IMG/VR virus record: IMGVR_UViG_3300017912_003267
Source of the DNA: an uncultured virus (IMG/VR IMGVR_UViG_3300017912_003267)
Lineage: Duplodnaviria; Heunggongvirae; Uroviricota; Caudoviricetes
Direction: 5' to 3' (one strand)
Length of the DNA: 64,000 bases
The translations under genes and the position numbers were made by a program. The number at the start of each line of letters is the position of its first letter. Within the stretch, counting starts at the first letter, position 1. Positions 22,901 through 39,287 of this stretch are shown here, one piece after another. A model generated the notes under the pieces. It searched no databases. It saw nothing but the letters and a program-made list of their open reading frames with translations, and was not told where the DNA came from.

Positions 22901-23607
22901 TCACTGTGATAAACAGTGAAGCAACCGTTTACATTGGCATTGCTGAAGATAATGATATAGAAGAATCTGAAGTTATGACTTTTGTTATTAATGGTACAGG
23001 TGCTACGGCTGATGTTGTTATTATTAATACATCAGACGACGAGGACAAACCAGAACCACCTCCACAAAAACCATGCCTAGACAAACCCGTTGCTGGTAAA
23101 CCGATCACAGATGCCAATGGAAGCATCATTAGTATTCCGATTATTGATAAAGGTTGTCCTTATATCTTCCCACCGAAAGTTATTATTACTGGACCAGGAT
23201 ATGGAGCTTCTGCTGTCGCCTTAACAGATCCTAGCGGCAAAGTTAGTGAGGTTCGTGTTACTAGAACTGGTACAGGATACAATCTCAATGAACCAGGAGA
23301 ACTACGTTGTGTAATCGACTCTTATACAATCATTAGTCCTGGACAAGGATATACAGAAGCACCTGATGTGTATATTGATGGCATTGCTGGTCGTGCTACA
23401 GCGATCATAGATGAGCGAGGATATGTAATTAGTATCCAACCAACAGATAGAACATCTACATGGAACGAGATACCGATTGTTAGAATTGTGGGTGGCGGAG
23501 GATCTGGTGCCCGTGTTGTTCCTTCTGTTGTCTGCCTAGATACTAAGGAGTATGAAGATCAGGGTTATGCCAAGATTGGCACTGGTCGTTATGTTGATTG
23601 CCCATAA
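19984..23607 (+). CDS. gp5: Baseplate hub gp5 N-terminal OB-fold protein with Calx-beta-like repeats
   Basis: FSWWVGQIE, GRYRVRIVGQH, LPWA, VVGFYLD..KQKPIIMG; EGE-repeat Ig-like domains. Confidence 0.85.
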   Translation: MDPAVSSLFPIHQIGADGFSWWVGQIETEKHGDPKKSGRYRVRIVGQHLKDCDATTTEQLPWANVMMPVTTPFSDGGATGATVDLRQGNWVVGFYLDNDKQKPIIMGSIGHTAGATQRSNVQSDPNPGETCKSFSTFLQESNPSLHKPLGSKEKRNGDQPASSTTAEDTGVTSVGEAGQIAAAVPGQMPPAFYGLFAEASTTNPTGNKVCVEIANPNCGSENDLKGGLTTIIGEMLKATQQSGGNLGSFYVSKINGELNNYIDHGMEYVNKAVRLVKSFIARVKGEIVKLIREGVDQLVQLILYEEVAAETVEKAVAKAKTSEIDNVSEAEEPATKTQSRLKPILDAINDVLDDLGCSMADLTDRLARWLTDLLLGYLMDAFSNAACLVDSVVNGILNQILAFIESLIGNVLGPLQQLLQLLASPLDIIGNAINKVLNLLGISCDGPAAKCEEFLKECTDCGVGETEDWLDKLIDDIESGNLDNTTYVCDEAKNTSAKDSLPPTNIIFIGGTFPPGDPTDDGIPTDIFVSYSFNDIEVTEGEQAVFTITRGGNVSSASSITFTILGGTAEEGVDYDKIYSGSSVGFAPGSTERTIEFETYKDTQTEGPETFFIKIEENVTPEGLIATFPGGNVKKCTIDDFSSEDLSPPPNLPPDSPYVPPVLVTVTPVQTTPILGTTFVPEDVQTISITTDKTFYSEGETIRYTVDSSGYPPGTVFTYTIEGDVNEDDIEGGLTGSFTIGSTGASAFSREILVNEDVEDDVDPLESITLFVDGTQAYANAFILAGDDADNTQIRWSVSSDVSYIREGETATFTVTTLNVPDGTNFTYVLEGTITETDIVGYRLESSVDIDARPLQIIDNQCIIPIQATQDGEVEETEYFDFRIKSYVDSNGDTQVVENVSTQVVILAAEEVDDDTIPLYSVTTDKLEYNEGETIVYTINTQNVPNGTLLQYTLYGDGIKKTDVIPESLFGTFTVINSEATVYIGIAEDNDIEESEVMTFVINGTGATADVVIINTSDDEDKPEPPPQKPCLDKPVAGKPITDANGSIISIPIIDKGCPYIFPPKVIITGPGYGASAVALTDPSGKVSEVRVTRTGTGYNLNEPGELRCVIDSYTIISPGQGYTEAPDVYIDGIAGRATAIIDERGYVISIQPTDRTSTWNEIPIVRIVGGGGSGARVVPSVVCLDTKEYEDQGYAKIGTGRYVDCP

Positions 23608-23613
23608 AGAATT

Positions 23614-24813
23614 ATGCCAGACTCAGTAAACCAACCACCATCAGAAGAAACCCAAAGTAAAGTTGCTGGGGGATTTAATTATGACCCAGCTTTAGCTGAA
23701 AACTATTGGGCAGAAGGTCCCACCCCAGATTTTTCACAAGTCATCGGTGGATTTAATTTAACATCGTATAGTTTCTCGGATGGTAGTCAAGGTCTAGCAC
23801 TTTACAATGGTAAAGTTGCTTTACACTTTGATAACAATAATAATATCACATTAGCTGCTGGACCACCAGGACAGTCTGGTTGTGGTGGAAAAATGATTAC
23901 CAATGTTCAACAACAATTAACAAAGGCAAAGTCAGTTGTTGTTGAAGTAACTGGACGAGATGATGGTGGTGTTGTTGATAAGAAAGCAGATGAAAATGGT
24001 AATGTAGACGAGTCATCTCTTCCATCATATTCATTAAAAGTTTATGGTCCTGTAACGATTGAGGCATTGGGTGGAGATGTTGCTATTAAAGGTGATAACG
24101 TAACCATCAATTCTGGTAGCACATTAAACTTACGATCGAATAAAGACATCAACATTTCGGCAGGAGAAAATGGAGGAAAGATAAACCTTACAGGATCTTC
24201 TGTCAATATGGAAGCCGCCTTTTTTAACAAAAATTTAAGTGGTGGTGATTATACTAGTGGCGCTGGTGAAGTGAAAGTTGATCAAAATAAACCAGGATCA
24301 ACTGTTAGCGTTAACACGCCAGGTAGTGTGAGATATGTTGTTAATGGTTCATATAGTTTAGGTGTAAAGGGAGAATTCAAGACAGATGTTACTGGCAATT
24401 ATATCTTAAATGTTGATAGAGATTATGGTGCTAAAATTTTGGGTGACTATGCCAATGTAGTACAAGGAAAGGGACTTACAAAAATCAATGGCATTGGTTC
24501 AAGATCATCTCAGATGCAGAATTATCTTATCGATGTTCTTCCCAATAGTAAAAAACAGATCCCTGGGTTTGAAATAAATTCGAGCAGTCTATTGAAATTC
24601 ACAAATAGAGAGGGTGGATTTAAATTTGAAGTTGGTAAGAATCTTGCTTCAATGGCTCTCGAACAATCTAAATTTAGTGTCGAGACGGGTCCTAAATTGG
24701 GTGCTATAAATATCGACAGCAAATCAGCAACATTAGAGTTTGGCAAGTCTTCTAAGGTAAGTGTAACTCCATCGGAAGTTTCTGTTGTTGCTCCTATGAT
24801 TTACCTAAATTGA
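23614..24813 (+). CDS. Probable gp5 C-terminal beta-helix/spike-like protein
   Basis: V.G.Y repeats, Gly/Val/Ile-rich, ends IYLN; follows gp5. Confidence 0.55.
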   Translation: MPDSVNQPPSEETQSKVAGGFNYDPALAENYWAEGPTPDFSQVIGGFNLTSYSFSDGSQGLALYNGKVALHFDNNNNITLAAGPPGQSGCGGKMITNVQQQLTKAKSVVVEVTGRDDGGVVDKKADENGNVDESSLPSYSLKVYGPVTIEALGGDVAIKGDNVTINSGSTLNLRSNKDINISAGENGGKINLTGSSVNMEAAFFNKNLSGGDYTSGAGEVKVDQNKPGSTVSVNTPGSVRYVVNGSYSLGVKGEFKTDVTGNYILNVDRDYGAKILGDYANVVQGKGLTKINGIGSRSSQMQNYLIDVLPNSKKQIPGFEINSSSLLKFTNREGGFKFEVGKNLASMALEQSKFSVETGPKLGAINIDSKSATLEFGKSSKVSVTPSEVSVVAPMIYLN

Positions 24814-24874: not shown

Positions 24875-25480
24875 ATGATTTACGATAGACATAATATAAC
24901 AGAAATTAATAATTGTAATCCCGAAGGATTTCTTTATCCTTTTTTGAAATTTATTAAAACTCCCGAATTTATGTGGCAGTGGGGATACATACTTCCAGAA
25001 GAGGGAAAATTCAAAACGGATTTACAAGAATCTTGGAATAGACATATGTGTCGATTGCTTTATTTCAAGAAAAATCCTCTATATGGTAAAGAAGTGATTG
25101 AAAATTATATTGGTAATAGTACCCTATGTATTAATACACAAGCATTAAAACTATTGAGACCTCTTTTTAAAGAACTAGGAATTAAAAAAGGAGAGTTAGA
25201 AAAAGTCAAAATTAATTTGACACCATGTAAACCTGAAAACGCTTTTTCTGGATGGCATAACGACCCAGAAGAAAAATATTCGGGAAAAGGAATGACTGCT
25301 ATTTACTATTTTAACACATGTAATGGAAAAACATTATTTAAAGAACCTTACAGAGAAGTGCCTAGCGAAAGGGGAAAAATGGTTGTATTTCCCAATGAAA
25401 TGTTACATGGAGGAACATTTCAAACCGACGCCCCAGAAAGAATGGTTTTGAATATCAATTGGATACTTGACAGATCCTGA
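24875..25480 (+). CDS. 2OG-Fe(II) oxygenase
   Basis: WHND (HxD), AIYYFNTCNGKTLF, distal H (MLHG), RMVLNIN. Confidence 0.85.
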   Translation: MIYDRHNITEINNCNPEGFLYPFLKFIKTPEFMWQWGYILPEEGKFKTDLQESWNRHMCRLLYFKKNPLYGKEVIENYIGNSTLCINTQALKLLRPLFKELGIKKGELEKVKINLTPCKPENAFSGWHNDPEEKYSGKGMTAIYYFNTCNGKTLFKEPYREVPSERGKMVVFPNEMLHGGTFQTDAPERMVLNINWILDRS

Positions 25481-25521: not shown

Positions 25522-25594
25522 GCTCCTTTAGCAATCTGGTGAATGCAGCGAACTCATAATTCGCCTAAGGTGGGTTCGATCCCCTCAAGGAGCA
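25522..25594 (+). tRNA. tRNA with CAT anticodon (likely Ile2, otherwise elongator Met)
   Basis: GCTCCTT/AAGGAGC acceptor, GCGAA-CTCATAA-TTCGC anticodon arm, TTCGATC T-loop. Confidence 0.9.
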
Positions 25595-25623
25595 TTGACA
25601 GAAACAAAGCGTTCTGCTATAAT
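25595..25623 (+). promoter_or_regulatory. sigma70 promoter for tRNA-Leu
   Basis: TTGACA-N17-TATAAT with extended -10 TG. Confidence 0.85.
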
Positions 25624-25636
25624 TCTGTCATATCAA

Positions 25637-25720
25637 GGGACGGTGGTGGAATCGGTAGACACACCAGACTTAAAATCTGTCGGGCATATGCCTGTGAGGG
25701 TTCAAGTCCCTCTCGTCCTA
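25637..25720 (+). tRNA. tRNA-Leu(TAA)
   Basis: CAGA-CTTAAAA-TCTG anticodon arm, long variable arm, GAGGG-TTCAAGT-CCCTC. Confidence 0.93.
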
Positions 25721-25725
25721 TTCAC

Positions 25726-25733
25726 CATAAATA
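25726..25733 (+). promoter_or_regulatory. Late promoter upstream of the cpeT operon
   Basis: CATAAATA 20 nt before ATG 25753. Confidence 0.6.
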
Positions 25734-25752
25734 GTTATGTGTGGAAAACAAC

Positions 25753-26019
25753 ATGAAGTATACTCTTTCTCAGTCTTATTCCTTTTATCTTGGTAAAGTT
25801 GTTAGAATGTACTTCATTAATGGGATGCCTTATACATTCGACGAATTACCTTTGTTAGTTCAAGATCATCCTGACGTACAGTCCGAGGCATTGGAAGGTA
25901 GAGATTGGGATGACGAAGAAATGTTTAGGATATCCAATTACTTGATGATGGAAGAATGCCATCCTTTAATGTATGATATTGAAGTAGATAATCCTGCTCT
26001 ATTACCACAAGATGATTGA
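25753..26019 (+). CDS. Conserved cyanophage hypothetical protein
   Basis: VVRMYFINGMPYTFDEL; overlaps the cpeT start (GTG 25741 is an alternative start). Confidence 0.75.
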   Translation: MKYTLSQSYSFYLGKVVRMYFINGMPYTFDELPLLVQDHPDVQSEALEGRDWDDEEMFRISNYLMMEECHPLMYDIEVDNPALLPQDD

Positions 26020-26536
26020 AACCTTAAATAAATGGTTAGAAGGAAAGTTTGAAAATAAAATTCAAGCATTCTCATGGCCTTCAAAGTATGCTTACATAAG
26101 AGTCACTCATATTCCTGTGTTTGATGGATTTTTTTATGGCGAGCAAGCATACAATTATCAAGTAAAAAAACCCTATAGGCAATTTGTTCTCAAACCAACA
26201 GTAACTGATTCTGGTATTACTATTCTTAATTATGAAATTGTTGGTAAAGAACAATTTGCTGGGGTAAAAAATCTTGACAGATTAAGTCTAGACATGTTAC
26301 GATTGAAAAATGGTTGTGATGTCAATCTCACATTTGATGGATCTGCTTTTGTTGGTGGGTTGACAGGATGTGATTGTTATGTAAAATGGAGTGGTAAAGA
26401 CACTTATCTACAAAATGAAATCAAACTAACCGAAACACATTATTATGTGAAAGACTTAGGATTTGATCAAAAACTAGGACATCAAATCTGGGGATCTAGA
26501 TACGGTCCTTTTGAATTTAAAAAAATGCCCCTGTAG
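26012..26536 (+). CDS. cpeT: CpcT/CpeT (T-type) phycobiliprotein lyase
   Basis: G.F.N..QA...P, YGEQAY...PYRQF, GCD, D.GFD...QIWGS..GPFEF. Confidence 0.92.
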   Translation: MIETLNKWLEGKFENKIQAFSWPSKYAYIRVTHIPVFDGFFYGEQAYNYQVKKPYRQFVLKPTVTDSGITILNYEIVGKEQFAGVKNLDRLSLDMLRLKNGCDVNLTFDGSAFVGGLTGCDCYVKWSGKDTYLQNEIKLTETHYYVKDLGFDQKLGHQIWGSRYGPFEFKKMPL

Positions 26537-26601
26537 CTCAATGGTAGAGCAACGCTTTTGTAAAGCGTAGGTTGTCCGTTCAAATCGGATCGGGGGCTCC
26601 A
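26527..26601 (+). tRNA. tRNA-Thr(TGT) with encoded CCA
   Basis: GCCCCTG/CGGGGGC acceptor, ACGCT-TTTGTAA-AGCGT anticodon arm. Confidence 0.93.
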
Positions 26602-26684
26602 GTCGGTATGGCGGAATTGGTAGACGCGCTGGGTTTAGGTTCCAGTGTCTTTATGACGTGGAGGTTCAAGTCCTCTTACCGACA
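26602..26684 (+). tRNA. tRNA-Leu(TAG)
   Basis: GTCGGTA/TACCGAC acceptor, CTGG-GTTTAGGTT-CCAG arm, long variable arm. Confidence 0.92.
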
Positions 26685-26701
26685 TATATAAAACGAAAAA
26701 A

Positions 26702-27391
26702 ATGATATCAGTAATTGACAATTCTGTACCATTTGATATAGTTAATATAATTGGTGAAATGGTATTTGACCCAAAATTTACTTGGCAAATGCCTACAGGT
26801 GGGTTTTCCACGGTGTCATTAGATTATGACAAAGAAAAATCATTCAAAAATCAAAGAGTCATTGATTCTGCTCAATTAGTACACTCTTTGATAATTAGAG
26901 ATGAAATACGGTGCCCATTATTTCACCTTTTTTCAATTTTAATTAATTATTCCCTAAAATATGAATTTGGGAAAATAAATGACGATTTTCATATTCATAG
27001 GTCAAAATTAAACTTGATGACTAGAGATCTGTTGCCAGATCCTAATAAAGACTATCATAATCCACCACATGTAGATCCAACTTTTGCTGATGACACGGAT
27101 CGACATGATATATCAATGTTATATTATGTCAATAGTTCTGATGGTGATACTTGGTTTTTCAATGATGAACTGGGTTTTGATGTAGTAAAAAAAGTTTCTC
27201 CAAAGCAAGGTAGGGTTGTTATATTTGATGCTCACCATTTTCATGCTAGTTCGCCACCAAAAAATTCTACTGCTAGGGTTGTCTTAAATGTCAATCTCAC
27301 TTGTCCTTACACCTTGACTGAGGTGTATAAATACAAAGAAGAAGAAGACAAACCTAGGTTCGGCGCTAATTATGGCTCTTACAAGACTTGA
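26702..27391 (+). CDS. 2OG-Fe(II) oxygenase
   Basis: PHVD (HxD), LYYVNSSDGDTWFF, FHASSPP, RVVLNVN. Confidence 0.87.
   Translation: MISVIDNSVPFDIVNIIGEMVFDPKFTWQMPTGGFSTVSLDYDKEKSFKNQRVIDSAQLVHSLIIRDEIRCPLFHLFSILINYSLKYEFGKINDDFHIHRSKLNLMTRDLLPDPNKDYHNPPHVDPTFADDTDRHDISMLYYVNSSDGDTWFFNDELGFDVVKKVSPKQGRVVIFDAHHFHASSPPKNSTARVVLNVNLTCPYTLTEVYKYKEEEDKPRFGANYGSYKT
27326..27333 (+). promoter_or_regulatory. Late promoter for the giant structural gene
   Basis: Perfect TATAAATA 38 nt upstream of ATG 27372. Confidence 0.85.
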
Positions 27392-30300
27392 TAATCTGTA
27401 CTCAAGTAAGACTGGAAAATACTTATATGTATCTCCAGACGACTTTAATGCTACTGATGAACTAGACAATAGGGGCAATAGTCCTTTACGTCCATTTAAA
27501 ACTATCCAGAGAGCCTTTATTGAAGTAGCGAGATATTCATTCCTACCCGCCGAAAACGGTAGATCTACACCAGATAGATTTGATCAATTTAGCATCATGT
27601 TGATGCCTGGTGATCACTATATTGATAATCGTCCTGGACTAAGAACTCTTACTTCTGCTGGTAATGATAAGCAACGCTATTATAATGCAAAAGAATTAAT
27701 TACAGCGAACCGTCAGGAAATTATTGACCGTGCTTTTGGTCAAATTGTCATTGATTATGATGAATCTGCCTGGGGTACAGATTGGGTAGTTCCTGGTGAT
27801 GAGGTTCTTCCTAATGGATCTCCTGACCCTCTACGTAGGGGTCAGTCTGCGTATCGTTTGATCCAGAAAAACAAAGAATTTATTCAGGCAAGAGCAGTTG
27901 GTCAACTTACTATTGACTATACTGAAGGTCAAACAAACGGTCTTTTTGCTAATGATTGGGTTATTCCTGGTGACACTGCTTTAGGAATTGATACTTTTAA
28001 TAGAAGAGCATCTGCTTATCGTTTGATTCTTAAGAATAAGACAGATATTGTCAATTCTTCCTGGGAATTTATGAATTCTCAGTATCCAGAATTTACTTCC
28101 GTACAAACTAAGTGTAAGCGTGATATTGGATACTGGGTAGAGCATTTTGCTTTAGATGTTCTTTTTGGTGGCAATAAGTTCACTGATATTTTCACCAGAA
28201 CTTATTTTAATGAAGAAGGAACAGCAATTCTTCAGAATGCTATTGATTTAACTAATGCCAATGAAAAGACAGCAACATTATTGGCAATGGTTCATGCCAG
28301 TAATCTTTCTGCTGGTGTTATTACTAACAGAGCTCACCCATCGGCAAGTCAAAATGTTAACGTAAGCTTACAACCCGTTGCTAATCTCTCCAATGTTGTT
28401 GATGTCAGTGGTTGGTACTATGATCCTAATATAACAGCAGATCCAACTAAGTCTAACAATTATACTGTGGATAGTTGTTCTACGATTAGAACTACTATTG
28501 ATAATTTGTTCACTATTTTATATGACGCTATTGTCGCTGAAAACACTTCAACTCTGGATAGTTTACCAGAGAGCAGTTATGATGTTGGTATTGGTACATC
28601 TAAGTGCTATCGTGATGTTGGTTTCTATATCGACGGTATTTCTTTAGACATTGTACAAGGTGGTGGCAATCGTTATACTAGAAAGTATATTCAAAACTAC
28701 TTCAATGCTGAGGGAAGCGGATGGGTAGATGATGGTTTACAAGGTGAAGAACTTCAATCTAAAATTGTTTTTGATCAAGCAGTTTCTTTGATGAAAGAAG
28801 CCGTATCCAATCAACTTGGATATAAAGACTTTACTCTAACTCATGATCCTGCTGGAACTGGATCTGGTACTGATTACGATCCAAATTCTTGTTCTGGTGT
28901 CAAAAATACTATTGATACCTTATCAGCACTTATTGAAACATATTTTCTTCAGGGAACACTTGATGGATTCCCCGAAGAAACTACTTCTGATGTGGGTCCT
29001 GGAGAATCTAAGTGTAAGCGTGACCTTGGATATTTACTTGATGCTATTGCTGCTGACCTCCCCAATGGTGGTAATGGCAGTGTAATTAATTTTGTTAAAG
29101 CGTATTTTGATAAGAATGGTCTTCAAATTACTGATGGTCTCTTAGGAGAAGAAGCACAGTCGGTAATCGCTTTCAATGCCGCTGGCAAGTATATAAAGCA
29201 AGCGATCACGAACCAACTATATTCTAAAGACCTTACTATCCTTCCTGGTCCTGCTAGATATTCTGGATACGAAACTAACGAACCAACTGTCCCGAATTTA
29301 CCATCTGGTAACTCAGCTACATGTGTCGATGTACAAGATGCTGTTGATAGTTTAATTGGTATTGTAACCACAGTATTTACTGAAGGAAATCTAGATTCTC
29401 TATCTCAAATTCAGGTAACTGGTGACATTCCTGTATTTAATTTCAATAGAGCAATCGATGAGTGGCAAGACAACAGTATTTTAGATCTTTCTAACCCAGA
29501 CAATGTTCTCTACAAATTCAATGCTCCTGATGGCGGCGCTATTGTCCCTAGAGGTTGTTCTCTTATTGGTTATGACCTTCGTCGTACCATCGTTCGTCCT
29601 CTATATGTTCCTGATCCCATTGACGGAACCCAAGAAAGAACATCAATCTTCAATCTAACTGGTGGTTGTTATCTATGGCAGTTTACCATCAAAGATGGTG
29701 ATCTATCTTCTAATTCTCCTCTATTTGACAACACTGCTGGTGTTGGTAAAGTATATTATCAGAAAGGTAATAATACTGCTCTAGCAATTCCCGAGTATTC
29801 TCACCATAAGATCACTATCATGACTTATGCTGATACTACGGATCTACAAATCTATTATGATAAGGTCGCTAGAGCATTCTCCCTTTTCCAACCTACTATT
29901 GATGATGGTGATTTTGAACAATTACCTCAGGAAAATAGAATTGTTGGACCTTTGTCTGACACTAGAAGTATCACTAATTTAAGGTTAACTGGTCAAACTG
30001 CTAGTGGTCAAACTATCATTAGGGCTACTACAAAAACAGCACATGGTTATTTTACAGATCAATATGTTGCTGTTATTGATAATGGTTTAGATAGTAGATT
30101 AAACGGAACATTCAAAGTTACTAATGTATTTGAATTGGATCCCAAACAATTTGAATATATTGTTGATGTAACGCCACAACAATTAGGACTGGATATCAAT
30201 GATACTGGATATTCTATCCCCGATTTGAATGTAAGTGCTAGAGTACAGGCAGAAATTGACTCTGTTGAGTCTGCCTCTCCATATGTCTTTAACTGCTCCA

Positions 30301-33300
30301 TCAGATCCACCTGGGGTCAGTGTGGTATGTGGGCAGATGGATCTAAGGCAACTGGATTCAAGTCGATGGTTGTGGCTCAATATACTGGAGTTTCTCTTCA
30401 GAAAGATGACCGTGCCTTCATCCGCTATGATGAGTTTAGCAATACCTGGAACCAGGCATCTTTACAGGATGCTTTTGGTACTACAGCGTATCATACAAAG
30501 GGTGATGCTTATTGGAAGGATGACTGGAGAAACTTCCACATCCGTGCTTCTGATGACTCTTTCATCCAGTGTGTTTCGGTCTTCGCTGTTGGTTTCTTCG
30601 ATCACTTCTTAATGGAGTCTGGTGGTGACATGTCCATCACCAACTCAAACTCCAACTTTGGTAATACATCACTTCACTCTATTGGTTATAAAGGATTTGC
30701 TTTTAACCAGGACAAAGGTGGTTATATTACATCCATGGTTCCTGTTAAGGCTGTTGATGATACTGATTTTAATAAAGTTTCTCTTAAATATTATCCTCTA
30801 TCAAATCAGGCGACTAAAGACCAAGGTGCTTCTCAAGATAAACTATATTACTCTGGAGATGATGTATATTCTCCATTTACCAAACCAGCTACATCTATTG
30901 AAGGTTACCGATTAGGTTCTAAGACAGATGATTTTATTTCCCTAAAACTACCTAAATCGGGTGGTGGAACAGATATCTATACAGAAACACTTTATCCAAC
31001 AGGTTTCAAGAGATATACTGCTGCTTTAGAAACACTCAATCCAGATAGCGTAAATATCAACAATAATGCTCAAGACGCTGCTAATTTAATTGAAGCAAAC
31101 AAAGCATTTATTCAAAGTGAAGCATACAAATATATTATTACTCGCTATCCTGAAATTCAAAGTAAGGAAAGCATTACAATTGAAAAATGTGAGCGAGATA
31201 TTGGTTATGTTGTTGATGCTGTTATCCGAGATTTAAGAGTCGGTGGTAACATTAACACTATTAAAGCAGCTGAAGGTTACTTTGTTGGTGGAACACTTTC
31301 TTATATTGATGGAGAATTTAACGAGTCTATTGAAGCATACGAGTATGTAAGAAATCTCGTTATTGCTGCTATGAGAAACTTTGATATTCTCATCAGGAAT
31401 CCAGTAGTAGACCAAAATTCATCAATTATTAATGTTGGTGATACGTCTGGACTATTAGTTGGTATGACTGTTAAGCAGTATGAATATACTGATACTGCTA
31501 ATGGAGATCCAGCGGCAACTGCTAACTTTACTAATGGCAGATTGAGATATGAAGGTATTGGTGATTGGGTGTTCCCTGTTGACACTGGCGCGGTAATTGC
31601 TGGTGATGTCTATATTAGGAGAATTGTTGACTCGGAAAGAATTGAGATTGGTAATAGTGCTCCAGTTTTATCTACTAATAATGGTATTTTAGAAGCAACA
31701 TATGGATCAGCAATTTTACCAATTGGTTCTACTAGTAGTGGGGCATATTTCCATTTCACATTCCCATTCACTTCTTCACAAACTGATGATCCCGATACTT
31801 TAGTTGGTGGATTTACTGATATTAACCCAGTAAGAGATAGTGAAGTTTTACAAGACACTACAGCATGGTTAGGTTCTGATCCTGATGTGTATCCAGAGTG
31901 TGCTGGTATTGCCACACAAATTACACAGAACTATTTTGATCAGTTCTTCCTAATTCTTAATAATGGATTGACTCCTTTGGGAGGTACTGAGGTTGATGCT
32001 TACAACTTATTAACTGGCAATAAGAACTTTATCTCAGAAGAAGCATATGCTAGAATGCTTGCTGATCCTGGCATCAATGCTGCTTTTGTTCCTACTTTAG
32101 GTGCTAGTAACTGGAAAGCAAGAATTGTCTCCATGGTTGAGGCAATGGCTTATAATATTAAGTATGGTGGAACTAATCGAGTATATGATGAAATTATTGG
32201 ATATGTAACTAATCCTGGGCAAATTACAGGGGAAAGAACCGAATTAGTTCAACTTTATGTTGAAGCTAGAGATATTGCTATCAAAGTAATGAGAAACTTT
32301 GATATTGCTGGTGCTGGCGAACTAGAAGGATCTCATGGTTTAACACAATTTATTGACAATAGAATCCTTGGTGATGCTTCTGGTCAACCTGGGGTGTATG
32401 ATTATAGCAATGATTGTGCTGACATTGCTTCTCAAATTACAGTTTTCACTGCTTATGCCACACAATCTATTGGAACTAATGCTGACACTGGAGATGTAAA
32501 TGGTATTCCTGATACAGAACCAGCGTTTACAGTTGCCAGCCGTATTGAACCCCAGATAGATACTGTTAATCTTGCTGCTAGAGCAACTCTATTCAATATT
32601 GACACTGGTGCTGCTACATCTAATCCACATTATTTTGAAACTGGAACTCCTGTAAGACTTGTTCCTAGAATTAGATCGGGAGTTGATCCTAATTCTGTTG
32701 ATAAGCGTGTTATTAGACTTCCAAAAGGATTTGACACTAATACTATCTACTATGTTATTGCTCCTGGTAGAACTACACAACCAGAAGATTATTCTGATGG
32801 TGTAACGTATCCAAATACATTTACTTCTCAGCAAACAACTAAGTTGATGCTGGCAACTACGAAGGAAAATGCTGCTGCTGGTATTTACATGTATTCTCCA
32901 GAGACTGAATCTGTAGACTACAATGTACAAATTGATCTTTATCAGTATGTGCTTGATGAGTCATATAGACTACATCAATATCTCTGTAATTTTGAGTCTG
33001 GTCAGTCTAATGTTATTAGAACTGATGTTCCACACATCTTTGACATTCCTGGTACAGCTGATCATGTCCAAGAAATTTTCTTTAGAACATTTGGGGATAA
33101 TTCTACTTTACCAGAACTTCCTAATGGAGACACGGTAAATCCAAACACCATTTACTACGCTCGTTACGTTAATGAGAAGTCATTTAGTGTACATGCTACT
33201 GCTGCCGATGCTGTTGCTGGAACACCTACGATCACTTTTAATACAGGAACAGAATCCGTTCCTATTGGACAAAACTTCTATGTATTTGCTAATAAGAGAG

Positions 33301-36300
33301 AATCTCCTGTAAAATTTGATCCTACTAGAAATGATTCTGGTAAACTACCTGATTTACAAGAAACACTAACTGGTCAGTGGTATATTCAAGTTAAGAGAGA
33401 TTATAACCAAGGCAATACTGTTCCTGGGGATCCAACTAAAAACATCATTGCCAGGATGCAAGAAATTGGAGATTCTCTCAAGGACTCCAGATCTAAGAAT
33501 ACTTTCTACGAAAGACTTGAAGATGATAGATCAGCACTTGATAGAATCTATCGTCTTCGTTATGTTATTCCAAAACATGCTACTGGTGTTCGTGATCCGC
33601 TTAACGGATTCGTACTTAAGCAAAGAACTGACTCTACTAGAAGATTAGTACCACAAAGGATTGTTCTTAAACCTATTTCTGGAGAATCTCCAAATCGTGC
33701 TTTCTTCCAAGTTCCATATACTACTGCTTCTGGATCTGGTCAGCAAGCACAATTAGGTTTAACTACATCTGAATTAGCAGCTGCTGGAGTAGAACTATCT
33801 TCGTTTACTTATGATCCATATAAGTCCGATTCTGTCAAAATAGTTACTTCGGATAGAACTGATTCTAAAGTTGCCTTTAGCATTCAGTCTGCTAGAACTT
33901 TATCTGATAGTGGTTATCTAGAACTAACAGTATTTGATCATACAATTACTGATGATGCTGTTAGAAATGAGCAGTTTATTACTGTTAAGATTTCTGCTCC
34001 ACAAGGTGGATCTTTTAGGTTCAATACTTCAGAAAACAATGACCTCAACAAAATTCTTTGGAATGGATTTGCTAGTGGTTCTGGATATGTTCAGGGTTAC
34101 TTTAGTCCAGATGGAACTGATGAACACTATTTAATTCTAAAAGAACTCGAAGAAAATAATGAAGAAAGGGAGACGGTTGAATACAATCCTATTGTATCGA
34201 CAACTCTATTCCAATCTGTACTTGATGCTGATAATGACCCAGTATATGATGCCAATGGCAATCAAGAGTTAATTTTCGCTACGTTACTTGCCAAGCAAGA
34301 CAGCATCGGATCTCCTAATTTATCTCTTGCTAAATCTCTCAAGGAAGACTATCTCTATAGTGATAAAGAGACTAACGTCTTCACCATGACTCCTGGTGAT
34401 GTAATTAGAGACGACGCTACCAATGAATATGAAATTATTAGTGTTGAAGATGTTGGTGAACTTGAAGATACTTTCTATATCTTCGATGTTGAAGAAATTA
34501 AACGTCGTATTCCTAATCAGCAAGAAGGTGTCTATTATCTAACTTGTATTAAGGGTAATATTTCTCCTTATCCTACTGGAACTGGAGTTGGTGATAACTT
34601 CAAAAACTTTAAGTTCTCACAACCTATTTCACAACTGTATCCTATCAACTACAAGAATGATCCTCTTTGGTTCCAGGTACGTGCTCTATATGATGCCACT
34701 CCAAATGATACTAGTTATGATAATCAAATTTTAGATCCTCCAGCAACTGTTTGTGCTGCTGATAACTTTATTCATGGTCTTGTAACAACTAACGATTACA
34801 AGTACAATACTACTAAAGAGGTTATGCTTGATCTTGTCAAGAACCCCGCTTTAAGTAGATATGAATATACTACCAATTCTATTAAAGCACAGACAGGTAA
34901 CGCTGCTTCTGGTTCTGAAGATCGTCAGATTCCTATTGCTGGTGATTCTGAATACCCAACAGAGCAAAGACTATATCTAGAACTACGTCGTCCTTCGATT
35001 GCTAGATCTGGTAACCATACGTTTGAATATCTTGGTTTCGGTCCTGGTAACTACTCTACTGGTTTCCCACTTCGCCAAGAAGTTGTTCTTGAAGACATTC
35101 AAGACTTCTATGCTCAGGCAAAGCGTGAAGACGGCGGTATTGTCTTCTATACGGGTTTAAACTCTAATGGTGATCTTTATATCGGTAACAAGAAGATCAA
35201 CGCTATTACAGGTGAAGAGACGTTCCTTGAACAAGCTGTTTTAAATGAATCTGATGACGAGGATGATGATGTCGGTGGTCTCGTCACCACATTTGAACTT
35301 CCTGTAGTATTTGAACAGGAAATTACTGTAGATGGTGATGCTCTATTCAATAATCCAGTTACGATTAACGTTGATTCTGATGAGGATAATGCCTTAACAG
35401 TTATTTCTAATGTTGATACTGCAACTGGTGGTGACATCACTTTAGATTCACAGAATTTTACAACCAGCACAATTCCTTCTCAAGGTAATATCGTTTTACA
35501 TAAGAACGAAATCTATGCTGGTGTTTATAGATTCAACCCAAGAGGTTCTACCACATTAACAGGTCAGAACTATAGTGTTAGAACACATGTTAATTCTCAA
35601 ACTACACCTACAAATGCTACACCAAATCAAGATGGTGTTTTAGGCATTCAAGTTTCCTTTGGAAGTTTCCAGGGTCAAGCAATTGATCCTCTGTCTGGTG
35701 ACATCCTACTTAAGGGTGCTAAAGTTGGCAGAAGAGGTTCATTGGGTTGGATATTTGCTAATGATTATGAAAATAAAAATAGCAATATTGAAGAACTTGA
35801 AGCTGCTACTGATGTTGGATTAAATGCCGTTCGCTTCTTCATGGCAACTGGATCTGATACAGTCAGTGAAGGTTTAGTAGCTGGTAAAATTGTTAGAATC
35901 AGTGGATTTGGATCTCCATTTGCTAATCTTAACGGTATTCGTGAAATTGTTTCTAATACAGGAAGCTCTTTCATCGTCAATTCTCCATTTGTTGTTAATG
36001 CTCCTGCTACTAAATTCTCCCTAGAATCTGTTAATGGTACTAACGAGACAGCGACAGTAGAACTTTCTAATAGTAAGTGGAGAGAGTTTGGTGTATTGGG
36101 TGCCGAAACATTAAGAACAGATACCACGACCATTGGTAATTATGCTCTAGGCATCAACACTCTTGCTAGAACAAATCATGCTGATTATCAAGAAGGATTT
36201 ACTTCTGATCTAGCACAACCAAGAGCGACATTGGATGTTGTTGGTATTGCTTGGATTAGTGGTAGAGAACTTGATCTAGATGATTACAGTTCTGATACTC

Positions 36301-39287
36301 TTGCTGCTAATAGAACATATAGAGATAGAGCTAATGCTTTCTTAGTCGGCGGTGATTCTGGAAATCCAAATGATGAAGCTACATTCCGTGTTGCTACAAC
36401 TGCTGGATTCCAGGGACCACATCAAAATCAGACACAAGGTGCTGTAAGGGCATATGATACGGGTCGTGTTGGTATTAATGTTACTGAAGGTCTGATGAAC
36501 CACACCTTAACGGTGAATGGTGACATGAGATTATCTGGAGATGCTTTATTCGAGGAAAACTTACAACTTGATGGTGGTGCTCTTTCTAGTACAGCAGGAT
36601 CATTCGCTTTACTATCTGCTAATGTTAATACAATTGACTTCATTGATCAAGCGACTACAATTAATATTGCCAACTCTTTAACTAGCAGTTCTTCACAGGT
36701 AATTAATATTGCCAATAACGTTGGATCACAAGTAGTTAAACTCGGACAGTTTACTTCAAGTGGTGAACTAAAAGTTCATACAAATCCTTCTGCTACTTCT
36801 TCTAAAATACAAATTGGTACATTAGGATCTCCAAGCAGCAATGATAATGTTTCTGTCGTTAGAATCGGTGGAGCATTCTCTACCCAATCCAACAGTTTGA
36901 ATACTGGTTCAATTTACAAAATCTATAATAGATTCTTGGAGGTTGATGGTGAATTAGCATTTGGTATGAACAGTTCTCTGGGTACTGCTGTTTTACGTAC
37001 TCAGGCATCAACAGCAGAAATTTGTACTCTAGGAACCTCTACGATTTATTTTGGTTCTTCTGCTTCGAGAATGTTTATTGGTGCTGAAGGTGGATTTACT
37101 ACTATCAATAATAGTTTAGTCGTCAAGTCTTCTACTACTCTAGGTGGCGATGTAACATTATCTGGTGGTTTAAACTCTGGTCGTTTTGAAGTTACTAGAG
37201 GATCTTTCAGTACCGACACTCCTGCTCATGCTGTCGGTAATATTGATAATGCTAACATTGACCTATTCTCTAAGGTTAATATTAGTAAATTTATTGATAC
37301 TAGTGGTTCTGGATATTGGGGAGATACTAGTAGTGGAGACACTGTTAATATCGTTGACCCCAATGATCCAGAAAGATACTATCTAACTTTTACCACACCA
37401 ACAACAACAGCAATCTTTGCCGAAGGTGCTTATCTATTACTAGATCGTTCTAGATTAGCTCTGTTCGACCCAACTTCGTTTACTGCTACGATTCAAGCAG
37501 CAAGTGCTAATATTAATGCTAGCAGTGTTGCTTGGGTTAATACTGATAATGTAGGTTTGAATTATGTTCGTATTGAAACTCCTGGTCTAACTTTTGCTGA
37601 CGGTACAAATTATGCTCAAGTTATATCAATTGTTGGAAATGTACTTACTCTTGATAGAAATATTATTGGTAACACTTCTCTAACCTCTGCTTCTTTCAGT
37701 GGTGGTGAATCGACTCAAGATGTTACTACTTCTCCTGTTGGTGAAGAATACAGTGAACTTGTTAAAATTGTTGAATTAACTAACCTCAATACAGTTGGAT
37801 CTCAACCTTTGAGAGTTATGGTTGAGAGAGCGCACAACCAAAGAGACGGTAGCGGTGCTATGATCACTGGTGCTTCTCCAACTGCTCCTGGTCAAACTGG
37901 TTATGTTCAGTCTGGATATAAGTTCTTAAGAACTGATCACCCACAAGGTACTCTAATTACTAGATATGACTTGGCGGAAAATGTGAGCTTTATTGATGAT
38001 AGTTCCTTACCTATCGTGTCTGGGGTTACACCTGGAATTTTGGTTGATACTGGTGATTTCTCTGGTTCTGTTGGTGTAGGAGACATTTTAAGATTCACTG
38101 ATGTTGAAATGGCATTGATCACTGATGTCAATGCTACTTCACCACAGAGATTTGTAGTTACTGATGGTAATGATGAATCTCCTGTAGAGTTCTTTACTGT
38201 TGATTCTACTACTGGCGCTACTAATATTCAGGGCACGTTGGACATTACCAACACATTTACTCTAAATGGTTCTTTAACTGAAGGATCACAGACATTAACT
38301 ATTAACAACGGAGGTGGTACAAACACCTTCGTAGTTGATTCTGCTAATGGCAATCTTTGTATGAATGGCGACCTAATGACAGGTGGTCCTGACTGTGATA
38401 GGTTGAGAGTTCTTGCTGCTTCTGGAGATACCACAATTAGGGGTGGTGATCTTGAGATTCAAACTGATGATCCTAATAATACGAAATTATTATTCCAAAA
38501 TACAACAGGAAATCTAACACTTGGTGGCATATTAAATGTTCAGGGTGTAAATAGAAGTGTATTTGACGGTCAACTATCAGTTAACGGTGGCAACTTTAAA
38601 GTTGGCACTCAAGATCTAGCACCAAGATGGGAACCAAATACTCCTTATAACTTAAATGATCAAGTATATTATGGAACATATATCTATGAAGCCAATCAAG
38701 ATGGTATTTCTGGTGATACTCCTCCAACACATGTTGGTATTATTAATGGGGGCGACAACTTTGTCGTAAATGGTTCTAATGGATTTGGATTTACCTGGGT
38801 TGGAGAACGTACAGTAACTGATCGTTTTGAGATTACATCTGGCGGAGCGATGAATTTCGCTGGTCAAACGCCATTCTTTACACCATCAGGTGCTAGAAGA
38901 TGGGAGTTTATTCCCGATGGTACTGTTACTCAAGAAGTTGAACCCAATATCAATTATTTTGTTAACCCAAGTTCTGATCTAACTCTCTTGCTTCCACCAG
39001 CATCTGAGTCTACAACTGGTGATATGATCAGAATTGTCGATGTTGGTGGTGTATTAACTTATAATATTTCTCTAAGAATGAGAGCCAGAACTGGCGAATT
39101 TGTACAAGGTGATAATACCAACGCCAACATTCCTAACTTACAAAGTGAGCAATATAATGGTGGCGAATTGGTTGTTCAAACCCCACACGCCTCTTTTGGT
39201 CTTGTTTATCTCGGACCAAACAATTCCGATGGTTCGCCAAACTCAGCAGGTCCAACCGTTCAAGGTTGGTGGTTAATGGAGATCTAA
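27372..39287 (+). CDS. Giant virion structural/fibre protein (3971 aa) with phycobiliprotein-like repeats
   Basis: N-terminal beta-helix-type region (RPFKTIQRA, IVPRGCSLIGYDLRR), KCxRD repeats, beta-rich fibre C-terminus, late promoter. Confidence 0.88.
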   Translation: MALTRLDNLYSSKTGKYLYVSPDDFNATDELDNRGNSPLRPFKTIQRAFIEVARYSFLPAENGRSTPDRFDQFSIMLMPGDHYIDNRPGLRTLTSAGNDKQRYYNAKELITANRQEIIDRAFGQIVIDYDESAWGTDWVVPGDEVLPNGSPDPLRRGQSAYRLIQKNKEFIQARAVGQLTIDYTEGQTNGLFANDWVIPGDTALGIDTFNRRASAYRLILKNKTDIVNSSWEFMNSQYPEFTSVQTKCKRDIGYWVEHFALDVLFGGNKFTDIFTRTYFNEEGTAILQNAIDLTNANEKTATLLAMVHASNLSAGVITNRAHPSASQNVNVSLQPVANLSNVVDVSGWYYDPNITADPTKSNNYTVDSCSTIRTTIDNLFTILYDAIVAENTSTLDSLPESSYDVGIGTSKCYRDVGFYIDGISLDIVQGGGNRYTRKYIQNYFNAEGSGWVDDGLQGEELQSKIVFDQAVSLMKEAVSNQLGYKDFTLTHDPAGTGSGTDYDPNSCSGVKNTIDTLSALIETYFLQGTLDGFPEETTSDVGPGESKCKRDLGYLLDAIAADLPNGGNGSVINFVKAYFDKNGLQITDGLLGEEAQSVIAFNAAGKYIKQAITNQLYSKDLTILPGPARYSGYETNEPTVPNLPSGNSATCVDVQDAVDSLIGIVTTVFTEGNLDSLSQIQVTGDIPVFNFNRAIDEWQDNSILDLSNPDNVLYKFNAPDGGAIVPRGCSLIGYDLRRTIVRPLYVPDPIDGTQERTSIFNLTGGCYLWQFTIKDGDLSSNSPLFDNTAGVGKVYYQKGNNTALAIPEYSHHKITIMTYADTTDLQIYYDKVARAFSLFQPTIDDGDFEQLPQENRIVGPLSDTRSITNLRLTGQTASGQTIIRATTKTAHGYFTDQYVAVIDNGLDSRLNGTFKVTNVFELDPKQFEYIVDVTPQQLGLDINDTGYSIPDLNVSARVQAEIDSVESASPYVFNCSIRSTWGQCGMWADGSKATGFKSMVVAQYTGVSLQKDDRAFIRYDEFSNTWNQASLQDAFGTTAYHTKGDAYWKDDWRNFHIRASDDSFIQCVSVFAVGFFDHFLMESGGDMSITNSNSNFGNTSLHSIGYKGFAFNQDKGGYITSMVPVKAVDDTDFNKVSLKYYPLSNQATKDQGASQDKLYYSGDDVYSPFTKPATSIEGYRLGSKTDDFISLKLPKSGGGTDIYTETLYPTGFKRYTAALETLNPDSVNINNNAQDAANLIEANKAFIQSEAYKYIITRYPEIQSKESITIEKCERDIGYVVDAVIRDLRVGGNINTIKAAEGYFVGGTLSYIDGEFNESIEAYEYVRNLVIAAMRNFDILIRNPVVDQNSSIINVGDTSGLLVGMTVKQYEYTDTANGDPAATANFTNGRLRYEGIGDWVFPVDTGAVIAGDVYIRRIVDSERIEIGNSAPVLSTNNGILEATYGSAILPIGSTSSGAYFHFTFPFTSSQTDDPDTLVGGFTDINPVRDSEVLQDTTAWLGSDPDVYPECAGIATQITQNYFDQFFLILNNGLTPLGGTEVDAYNLLTGNKNFISEEAYARMLADPGINAAFVPTLGASNWKARIVSMVEAMAYNIKYGGTNRVYDEIIGYVTNPGQITGERTELVQLYVEARDIAIKVMRNFDIAGAGELEGSHGLTQFIDNRILGDASGQPGVYDYSNDCADIASQITVFTAYATQSIGTNADTGDVNGIPDTEPAFTVASRIEPQIDTVNLAARATLFNIDTGAATSNPHYFETGTPVRLVPRIRSGVDPNSVDKRVIRLPKGFDTNTIYYVIAPGRTTQPEDYSDGVTYPNTFTSQQTTKLMLATTKENAAAGIYMYSPETESVDYNVQIDLYQYVLDESYRLHQYLCNFESGQSNVIRTDVPHIFDIPGTADHVQEIFFRTFGDNSTLPELPNGDTVNPNTIYYARYVNEKSFSVHATAADAVAGTPTITFNTGTESVPIGQNFYVFANKRESPVKFDPTRNDSGKLPDLQETLTGQWYIQVKRDYNQGNTVPGDPTKNIIARMQEIGDSLKDSRSKNTFYERLEDDRSALDRIYRLRYVIPKHATGVRDPLNGFVLKQRTDSTRRLVPQRIVLKPISGESPNRAFFQVPYTTASGSGQQAQLGLTTSELAAAGVELSSFTYDPYKSDSVKIVTSDRTDSKVAFSIQSARTLSDSGYLELTVFDHTITDDAVRNEQFITVKISAPQGGSFRFNTSENNDLNKILWNGFASGSGYVQGYFSPDGTDEHYLILKELEENNEERETVEYNPIVSTTLFQSVLDADNDPVYDANGNQELIFATLLAKQDSIGSPNLSLAKSLKEDYLYSDKETNVFTMTPGDVIRDDATNEYEIISVEDVGELEDTFYIFDVEEIKRRIPNQQEGVYYLTCIKGNISPYPTGTGVGDNFKNFKFSQPISQLYPINYKNDPLWFQVRALYDATPNDTSYDNQILDPPATVCAADNFIHGLVTTNDYKYNTTKEVMLDLVKNPALSRYEYTTNSIKAQTGNAASGSEDRQIPIAGDSEYPTEQRLYLELRRPSIARSGNHTFEYLGFGPGNYSTGFPLRQEVVLEDIQDFYAQAKREDGGIVFYTGLNSNGDLYIGNKKINAITGEETFLEQAVLNESDDEDDDVGGLVTTFELPVVFEQEITVDGDALFNNPVTINVDSDEDNALTVISNVDTATGGDITLDSQNFTTSTIPSQGNIVLHKNEIYAGVYRFNPRGSTTLTGQNYSVRTHVNSQTTPTNATPNQDGVLGIQVSFGSFQGQAIDPLSGDILLKGAKVGRRGSLGWIFANDYENKNSNIEELEAATDVGLNAVRFFMATGSDTVSEGLVAGKIVRISGFGSPFANLNGIREIVSNTGSSFIVNSPFVVNAPATKFSLESVNGTNETATVELSNSKWREFGVLGAETLRTDTTTIGNYALGINTLARTNHADYQEGFTSDLAQPRATLDVVGIAWISGRELDLDDYSSDTLAANRTYRDRANAFLVGGDSGNPNDEATFRVATTAGFQGPHQNQTQGAVRAYDTGRVGINVTEGLMNHTLTVNGDMRLSGDALFEENLQLDGGALSSTAGSFALLSANVNTIDFIDQATTINIANSLTSSSSQVINIANNVGSQVVKLGQFTSSGELKVHTNPSATSSKIQIGTLGSPSSNDNVSVVRIGGAFSTQSNSLNTGSIYKIYNRFLEVDGELAFGMNSSLGTAVLRTQASTAEICTLGTSTIYFGSSASRMFIGAEGGFTTINNSLVVKSSTTLGGDVTLSGGLNSGRFEVTRGSFSTDTPAHAVGNIDNANIDLFSKVNISKFIDTSGSGYWGDTSSGDTVNIVDPNDPERYYLTFTTPTTTAIFAEGAYLLLDRSRLALFDPTSFTATIQAASANINASSVAWVNTDNVGLNYVRIETPGLTFADGTNYAQVISIVGNVLTLDRNIIGNTSLTSASFSGGESTQDVTTSPVGEEYSELVKIVELTNLNTVGSQPLRVMVERAHNQRDGSGAMITGASPTAPGQTGYVQSGYKFLRTDHPQGTLITRYDLAENVSFIDDSSLPIVSGVTPGILVDTGDFSGSVGVGDILRFTDVEMALITDVNATSPQRFVVTDGNDESPVEFFTVDSTTGATNIQGTLDITNTFTLNGSLTEGSQTLTINNGGGTNTFVVDSANGNLCMNGDLMTGGPDCDRLRVLAASGDTTIRGGDLEIQTDDPNNTKLLFQNTTGNLTLGGILNVQGVNRSVFDGQLSVNGGNFKVGTQDLAPRWEPNTPYNLNDQVYYGTYIYEANQDGISGDTPPTHVGIINGGDNFVVNGSNGFGFTWVGERTVTDRFEITSGGAMNFAGQTPFFTPSGARRWEFIPDGTVTQEVEPNINYFVNPSSDLTLLLPPASESTTGDMIRIVDVGGVLTYNISLRMRARTGEFVQGDNTNANIPNLQSEQYNGGELVVQTPHASFGLVYLGPNNSDGSPNSAGPTVQGWWLMEI

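Follow-up and report, generated by a model that had tools for sequence, protein, structure and literature searches.

Why should a T4-like cyanomyovirus carry the gene for a bilin lyase among its tail genes, and on what would that enzyme act? The question is raised by a 64,000-nucleotide (nt) stretch of an uncultured member of the Caudoviricetes (IMG/VR record IMGVR_UViG_3300017912_003267), hereafter the window, which is part of a T4-like cyanomyovirus genome and has 39% G+C. Here cpeT, encoding a 174-amino-acid (aa) homologue of the T-type phycobilin lyases in its long form (26012..26536, + strand), lies upstream of the gene for a giant virion fibre/tail protein of 3971 aa (27372..39287, + strand). 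An earlier note on this DNA had proposed that the phage CpeT is a virion-maturation enzyme that works on the phage's own structural protein. Our computational analysis confirmed the arrangement on which this idea depends: a lyase gene stands beside a virion protein with domains like the beta subunits of phycobiliproteins, these domains keep the T-type site, and the arrangement is real and conserved. That cpeT and the fibre gene form a functional pair, with the phage CpeT pigmenting the fibre repeats, would be the best single explanation, and we give it a probability of roughly 0.4.

Five repeats were recognized in the fibre protein, all encoded on the + strand. Repeat 1 (27993..28556, aa 208-395), a hidden Markov model (HMM) match, is a complete beta-like unit, with Cys248 in the motif KCKRD and a second cysteine at Cys369. 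Repeats 2 (28551..28970; Cys412 in KCYRD, and Cys507) and 3 (28956..29402; Cys548 in KCKRD, and Cys651) are without the first two helices and begin at HMM positions 30-31. Repeat 4 (31056..31973) has Cys1273 in KCERD, followed by an insertion of ~150 aa and then Cys1510, and repeat 5 (31977..32492) has lost the Cys84-like residue (NWKAR) and kept Cys1682. The C-x-R-D motif of a chromophore site is therefore present in four of the five repeats, with W-K-A-R in the fifth unit, where most relatives have C-D-D. The second Cys stands directly before the last helix in all five, Cys1510 having been placed by MAFFT only and not by the HMM; with that qualification, the earlier claim that every repeat keeps a beta-155-like Cys, including the one without a Cys84-like residue, was borne out.

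The insertion of repeat 4 (31470-31890, ~aa 1365-1505) lies between the fifth helix and the Cys-capped last helix, in the loop that holds a beta hairpin in the model of repeat 1. Additionally, the segment before repeat 1 (27834-27956, aa 155-195) contains extra copies of the first helix pair only (HMM 6-37), and two to four such partial copies occur in several relatives.

Are these units really phycobiliproteins by descent? They are true beta-like relatives of that family, as the Pfam model, profile searches, an AlphaFold model and fold searches indicate. PF00502 matched the whole giant protein marginally (23.3 bits, cut-off 22.2), at aa 1229-1280 in repeat 4; single units of the window stayed under the cut-off (13-15.6 bits), and three relatives reached 27-29.7 bits. 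A single repeat searched against the PDB found phycocyanin alpha at E 0.3-0.7 only. A profile of 149 units, taken from the window and from IMG/VR loci, was searched against all solved chains and returned 152 sequences at E up to 10 (best E 8.6e-6), the best 60 of which were all phycobiliproteins. The Cys of KCxRD aligns to Cys84 in this search, and also when a single repeat is compared with C-phycocyanin alpha.

The AlphaFold (AF2) model of repeat 1 (aa 205-400) had a predicted local distance difference test (pLDDT) score of 94.7 and a predicted template modelling (pTM) score of 0.91. The best Foldseek rows for this model were all phycobiliproteins and nearly all beta subunits (best E 6e-3). 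A second fold search, independent of Foldseek, placed a phycoerythrin beta chain first (Z 15.6), with phycobiliproteins at Z 11.2-15.6; ApcE and the allophycocyanins came next (Z 11-13), the bilin-binding domain of ApcE being second-best at Z 13.1, and other globin-like folds did not exceed Z 10.6. VIA rescoring of the Foldseek matches gave beta subunits for 50 of the 50 matches listed, the best being the C-phycoerythrin beta chain 7ap5_BBB (Z 16.5, root-mean-square deviation 2.2 Å, 147 aligned residues). The chain 8u0f_C, deposited as ‘Bacterial fluorescent protein’, was among the closest structural matches (Z 15.8); the unit profile aligned it over nearly its whole length, as it did just one other of the chains listed.

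The repeats thus share with the beta subunits (CpeB, CpcB; PF00502) the globin-like fold, with Z up to 16.5, the Cys-x-Arg-Asp of the central helix and a second Cys directly before the last helix. Unlike beta subunits, they are tandem modules within a 3971-aa virion protein and are without the N-terminal X-Y helices of the alpha-beta monomer, the model aligning only from chain residue 28-33 on; units 2 and 3 are also without the next two helices. Furthermore, the last helix is preceded by a long loop or by one with an insertion, and the C-terminal half has no detectable similarity. The core-membrane linker ApcE offers another precedent for a phycobiliprotein-like domain inside a large multidomain protein (Z 13.1), and needs no lyase to bind its bilin. 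ApcE, however, has one such domain, belongs to the phycobilisome and has no T-type lyase as partner, whereas the fibre is a virion protein.

Which position of a beta subunit does the second Cys occupy? In the model of repeat 1, the last helix spans residues 166-185 and Cys165 immediately precedes it. Model residue 184 was aligned with the terminal residue of beta chains of 184, 177 and 172 aa, and Cys165 stands 19 residues before this aligned end, just as Cys153 does in the 172-aa C-phycocyanin beta (numbering of PMC2246261). With model residue 184 at the C-terminus of the beta chain and the alignment colinear, Cys165 therefore falls on residue 153 of C-phycocyanin beta. The second Cys would accordingly be at the position of beta-153/155, as judged from the alignment ranges of one repeat. 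This is the position served by T-type lyases: the part of PMC2246261 dealing with CpcT gives its site as Cys153 of C-phycocyanin beta, and corresponding passages of PMC2327270 place the CpcT site at Cys-beta155 in consensus numbering and describe a high site specificity of T-type lyases for it, in agreement with the earlier statement that these enzymes are specific for beta-Cys153/155.

The window CpeT itself is a full-length member of the lyase family, matching PF06206 at E 1e-38 (133.4 bits, cut-off 21; residues 4-171 on profile positions 1-181). A profile of ten phage copies, searched against solved structures, found CpcT 4o4o at E 1.1e-38 (positions 2-173 on 7-188) and, more weakly, 5hi8 (136 aa, deposited as ‘Antenna protein’) at E 1.8e-17; because the match to CpcT is the better one, we assign the window protein to the long form, nearer to the cellular lyases. 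Aligned to CpcT, residues Tyr55, Arg56, Cys102, Cys122 and Asp148 are invariant in the ten phage copies, and may have catalytic roles. Like the cellular CpcT/CpeT lyases (PF06206; Nostoc CpcT 4o4o/4o4s), with which it aligns over its full length, the window CpeT would be an enzyme of Cys-beta155-like sites; unlike them it is phage-encoded, has no cpeESR partners and is found among baseplate and fibre genes, and its proposed substrate would be a virion protein instead of an antenna subunit.

We take 5hi8 to be the PhiCpeT of phage P-HM1 (Gasper et al. 2017). This short form of cyanophage CpeT belongs to the same family and is found in cyanomyoviruses right after baseplate/tail genes; compared with the window CpeT it is much shorter and more diverged, the Pfam model matching it in two weak pieces, and no late motif was found close to it in the eight genes checked. 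The P-HM1 protein, a short form, reportedly binds phycoerythrobilin and did not chromophorylate the host CpeB. A predicted complex of repeat 1 with CpeT gave scores of 0.14, 0.46 and 0.01 against a mark of 0.32 and, having been run without controls, counts neither way.

Does cpeT keep company with the domain in other phages? We surveyed 30 named cyanomyovirus genomes, of which 22 came from the list of domain matches; P-SSM2, P-SSM4 and P-RSM4 were chosen by accession, three further genomes as kin of S-SSM7, and S-SM2 and S-SSM7 because Table 3 of Sullivan 2010 (PMC3037559) shows no cpeT for them. cpeT exceeded the Pfam cut-off in 23 of the 30 genomes, in four of these only by summing two collinear weak pieces, and the domain was present in every one of the 23; cpeT without the domain was never found. 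P-SSM2, S-SM2, S-SSM7 and Sf-FS3 had neither, with no candidates even at E 0.1. The distribution of cpeT is nested within the domain-bearing genomes. A marker tree was built from a single gene and had 22 rows, six genomes without a match being left out. In it P-SSM2, S-SM2 and S-SSM7 form a well-supported clade with S-SCSM2R, which has both cpeT and domain; with both features found inside an otherwise domain-less clade, at least two coupled changes are therefore required.

The two genes are neighbours as well as companions. In the window 836 nt separate the cpeT stop from the ATG of the giant gene, close to the 0.8 kb estimated earlier, and this interval contains tRNA-Thr, tRNA-Leu and a 2-oxoglutarate-Fe(II) (2OG-Fe(II)) oxygenase gene. 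The baseplate hub genes (19984-24813) precede cpeT and the fibre gene follows it, which agrees with its earlier placement in the morphogenesis region at 26012-26536 and far from psbD, the Photo_RC (psbA/psbD family) gene at 16-1074 being ~25 kb distant. We collected 80 IMG/VR loci by an alignment of the closer orthologous units; in 56 of them the sequence before the first unit extended over 3 kb or more. In 46 of these 56, cpeT preceded the first unit on the same strand at a distance of 1.2-6.9 kb (median 2.0 kb); the other ten had no cpeT within 5-9.5 kb upstream. Seven of those ten were searched over the whole contig, which revealed a short-form cpeT elsewhere in two and none in five (fragments of an estimated 12-30% completeness). 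The gene order of the window is repeated in Sf-FR1, S-PM2 and S-RSM4. In the short-form phages cpeT directly follows a homologue of the baseplate/tail gene at 18588-19982 of the window, and the domain lies tens of kb away in a giant gp7-like structural protein. Both forms of cpeT are inside the baseplate/tail gene block.

A T4-late-type promoter motif, CATAAATA, is found at 25726..25733 (+ strand), 20 nt before the ATG (25753) of a small open reading frame (ORF) that is probably co-transcribed with cpeT, since its stop overlaps the cpeT start. A second late-type motif, TATAAATA, is found at 27326..27333 (+ strand), 39 nt before the ATG of the giant gene. Both had been pointed out in the earlier note; both were confirmed, and their positions are conserved. 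Of 41 distinct related loci, all have the late motif at a distance of 39-49 nt upstream of the fibre ATG (40 with TATAAATA, one with GATAAATA). NATAAATA, described as a cyanomyovirus late promoter in the part of PMC2984593 concerned with such motifs, precedes the cpeT start by 286-295 nt in 27 of these loci.

How general are the two sites, and who carries them? A search of 1.84 billion cluster representatives with the domain returned 470 proteins at E <=0.001, and most of the best 150 of these were giant proteins with many matching stretches. A local HMM was used to extract 1573 units from 151 proteins (the best 150 of the 470 and the window protein). Among the 1424 units covering the first site, Cys was conserved in 97%, Arg in 95% and Asp in 99%. 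Both Cys were nearly invariant in orthologues of the fibre gene, at 41-83% identity. All 355 phage records with the domain were cyanophages or marine viruses, with no other named host among the 355; repeats common in phages of non-photosynthetic hosts had been proposed earlier as a ground for rejecting the idea. A search for domain relatives among short proteins gave 15 matches and no true phycobiliproteins, and our literature search found no paper on phycobiliprotein-like domains in cyanophage virions or fibres.

These findings suggest the following mechanism. The fibre would carry five domains descended from phycobiliprotein beta subunits, with the Cys84-Arg86-Asp87 site in four of the five and the second Cys in all. 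In the long-form clade, CpeT would be expressed, like the structural genes, from a late-type promoter, and would link a bilin made by the host, probably phycoerythrobilin, to the second Cys, either during assembly of the fibre or ahead of it. S-type lyases act on Cys84; the Cys84-like site might be filled by such a lyase of the host, or autocatalytically as in ApcE. Among the T4-like cyanophages, those of cluster C encode an S-type bilin lyase, cpcV, yet are without psbA and hli (PMC10665884), and the presence of phycobiliprotein-like units in them would be telling. The pigmented fibre would then have a role, for example in light-dependent adsorption. Attachment of the bilin, CpeT as the attaching enzyme, late transcription of cpeT and a role for a pigmented fibre are all steps that we infer.

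Several observations, given here and with the rival explanations that follow, weigh against a CpeT that pigments the fibre. The results of this computational analysis include no bound bilin, no contact between CpeT and fibre and no late cpeT transcripts. In the window the + strand has six copies of [TC]ATAAATA and the - strand one, where base composition leads one to expect ~7.8 per strand; because these counts are at or below expectation, the late motif is not enriched. The motif is missing before cpeT in 14 of the 41 long-form loci, and none was found within 200 nt of the short-form cpeT in eight of eight cases checked. A profile of the C-terminal half of the unit had four matches in the PDB (E 0.6-7.6, limit 10), none of them a phycobiliprotein; because this half has no sequence match, the equivalence with beta-155 is a matter of the fold alignment ranges of one modelled repeat. 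The idea of CpeT as a virion-maturation enzyme is therefore partly supported: the beta-like repeats, the T-type site, the adjacency and the nested distribution favour it, and three genomes with the domain and without cpeT, the case of P-SSM4, and the fact that neither transcript timing nor bilin attachment was found do not.

P-SSM4 keeps a short-form cpeT, and none of its three domain units has either Cys. Those units (70463-75801) show L-R, K-T-D and V-N-N at the first site and F and I at the second. This case is what one would expect if cpeT were a host-directed auxiliary gene, supporting or redirecting the assembly of phycoerythrin or sequestering phycoerythrobilin; the adjacency to the fibre would then reflect a variable island, that is, tRNAs and small genes between the baseplate hub and fibre genes, and the match of cpeT with the distribution of the domain would reflect shared descent. 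Four tRNAs and two 2OG-Fe(II) oxygenase genes do flank cpeT, as is typical of such an island. Fisher's test gives p = 0.0013 for cpeT against domain over a biased sample of 30 genomes, 22 of them picked for the domain, and p = 0.43 for the eight picked blind to domain status; furthermore, all genomes without domain and cpeT fall into one marker clade. The presence of pebS and ho1, the genes for bilin supply, does not go with that of the domain: Table 3 of PMC3037559 lists these genes for P-SSM2 and S-SSM7, two phages without the domain.

The literature lends further weight to a host-directed gene. The relevant passages of PMC10665884 report cpeT in >60% of T4-like cyanophages, alongside other photosynthesis genes. 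Host phycoerythrin rises on infection by S-PM2, and cpeT has been proposed as the cause in the sections of PMC2984593 and PMC10452541 that treat this infection. The auxiliary metabolic genes (AMGs) of P-HM2 belong to the middle expression cluster, although cpeT is not named among them (Thompson 2016, PMC5082946), and our literature search found no statement on cpeT transcript timing. Other facts fit a host target badly. MED4, the host of P-HM1 and P-HM2, has, according to the portion of a preprint that concerns it (10.1101/2020.03.31.018853), a single site, Cys82, on its only phycobiliprotein and no beta-155 site; P-HM1, which was isolated on MED4, nevertheless carries cpeT, and the second Cys is present in four of its units. 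Hosts with phycoerythrin encode T-type lyases of their own. Moreover, cpeT sits inside the baseplate/tail block in both of its forms, follows a conserved late-type motif in the long-form clade, and was found without the domain in none of 23 genomes. The role of the phage gene is itself called “unresolved” in the part of Sullivan 2010 (PMC3037559) that discusses it. On balance we consider a host-directed cpeT rather unlikely.

B3 (five units), S-SKS1 (one) and ACG-2014f (two) keep both Cys without a cpeT over the cut-off, ACG-2014f having an 11-bit CpeT-like fragment. The co-occurrence check suggested earlier found the domain in 23 of 23 cpeT genomes on the one side and these three genomes, together with P-SSM4 and its units without Cys, on the other. 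In addition, the last helix was present in only ~440 of the 1573 units and the second-site Cys in 57% of those, so that the second Cys is much less widespread than the first. Such data accord with repeats that bind bilin independently of the phage CpeT, the Cys84-like site being filled autocatalytically or by an S-type lyase of the host and the second Cys, where modified, by a host T-type lyase, with some other role for cpeT. The bilin-binding domain of ApcE, described as autocatalytic in the corresponding section of PMC2327270, is the second-best fold match, and marine Synechococcus hosts already encode cpeT and a paralogue, cpcT/rpcT, according to the passage of PMC2246261 on these genes. 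High-light Prochlorococcus hosts, however, have no known target of, or need for, a T-type lyase, and P-HM1 has nonetheless retained cpeT as well as units with the second Cys; this account would also offer no explanation for the nested distribution and the conserved adjacency. We find this account improbable.

Many units of other phages have C-D-D or C-T-D at the first site, without the Arg. This is one of the reasons for asking whether the repeats might be purely structural and unpigmented, their Cys serving in folding, metal binding or cross-links such as disulfides formed after lysis. Disulfide-bonded extracellular domains commonly have a conserved pair of Cys, the units are without the N-terminal helices that phycobiliproteins use for pairing, and the literature search returned no report of coloured cyanophage particles. 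Nevertheless, Cys, Arg and Asp are exactly the residues that contact the bilin and are kept at 95-99%. In most units only the first of the two Cys is present, and in repeat 5 only the second, a pattern that misfits an obligate disulfide pair; by homology with beta subunits, the two sites would also lie in different parts of the fold. Finally, 355 of 355 domain-bearing phage records are of cyanophages or marine viruses. A purely structural role therefore seems doubtful to us, and a CpeT acting on the fibre repeats continues to be our preferred explanation.

What would a pigmented fibre do? Light-dependent adsorption of several cyanophages, mentioned in the earlier note, was verified in the parts of PMC6628666 and PMC2984593 on adsorption. 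In PMC6628666, as far as its adsorption experiments are described there, P-HM1 and P-HM2 fail to adsorb in darkness, the light-dependent adsorption of S-PM2 does not rely on photosynthesis, and P-SSM2 adsorbs in the dark, less than in the light. The dark-adsorbing P-SSM2 is without cpeT and without the domain. One may speculate that cyanomyovirus particles are pigmented, with bilins covalently bound to the beta-like domains of giant fibre and baseplate proteins, CpeT having attached them at the Cys155-like site and either autocatalysis or an S-type lyase of the host at the Cys84-like one, and that this pigment is the light sensor for adsorption of S-PM2 and P-HM2; in so far-reaching a form we judge the proposal unlikely.

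The rest of the window runs from the Photo_RC gene, speD, thyX, phoH and gp32; baseplate and tail genes come next, followed by a set of very large fibre genes. Between baseplate hub and fibre, the first 2OG-Fe(II) oxygenase gene (24875-25480) is followed by tRNA-Met and tRNA-Leu(taa) (25522..25720, + strand, by ARAGORN), upstream of the cpeT operon. The small ORF (25753..26019, + strand; alternative start in the ORF list, GTG 25741) belongs to phrog_4134 (E 5e-41), of unknown function, and the pair that it forms with cpeT is found also in Sf-FR1 and S-PM2. Downstream of cpeT are tRNA-Thr and tRNA-Leu(tag) (26527..26684, + strand, by ARAGORN), in an arrangement shared with Sf-FR1; in both phages the start of tRNA-Thr shares 10 nt with the 3′ end of cpeT (26527-26536 in the window). 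The four tRNA genes (Met, Leu, Thr, Leu) thus bracket the cpeT operon. The second gene of the 2OG-Fe(II) oxygenase family (26702..27391, + strand; PF13640, 35.1 bits) contains the fibre promoter motif in its 3′ end and overlaps the start of the fibre gene, and S-PM2 has a 2OG-Fe(II) oxygenase at the equivalent place. The two oxygenase genes (24875-25480 and 26702-27391) are paralogues flanking the cpeT island; the PHROGs family label for both is ‘DNA endonuclease V’, which conflicts with Pfam. The giant protein matches phrog_4527, ‘short tail fiber’, over its full length, and its homologues in named phages carry the annotation tail protein or short tail fiber. In the S-PM2 record AJ630128, 16 tRNA features (168556-173383), all tagged S-PM2p218, lie inside a continuous frame of 3792 aa, which looks like an annotation or coordinate error.

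A few records carry other taxonomic labels. A 340-aa partial domain protein (E 7e-49) is on a 1-kb contig of a metagenome-assembled genome (MAG) labelled Candidatus Nanopelagicaceae, and is probably mis-binned phage DNA. A genome scan with the phage CpeT alignment found only a long-form cpeT on a 4.4-kb contig of a MAG labelled Lewinella, again probably mis-binned phage DNA, and a weak CpeT-like match in the non-photosynthetic methanotroph Methylobacter luteus (34% identity over residues 11-77, E 1e-4). The Nanopelagicaceae and Lewinella records would matter if the domain truly occurs outside cyanophages.

If the phage CpeT does pigment the fibre repeats, the pairing would explain why cyanomyoviruses, most of which carry cpeT, do so even where the host has no T-type site. 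cpeT would move from a “photosynthesis support gene” to a “virion maturation gene”, and no virus particles before these would have been known to have a bilin photoreceptor built in.

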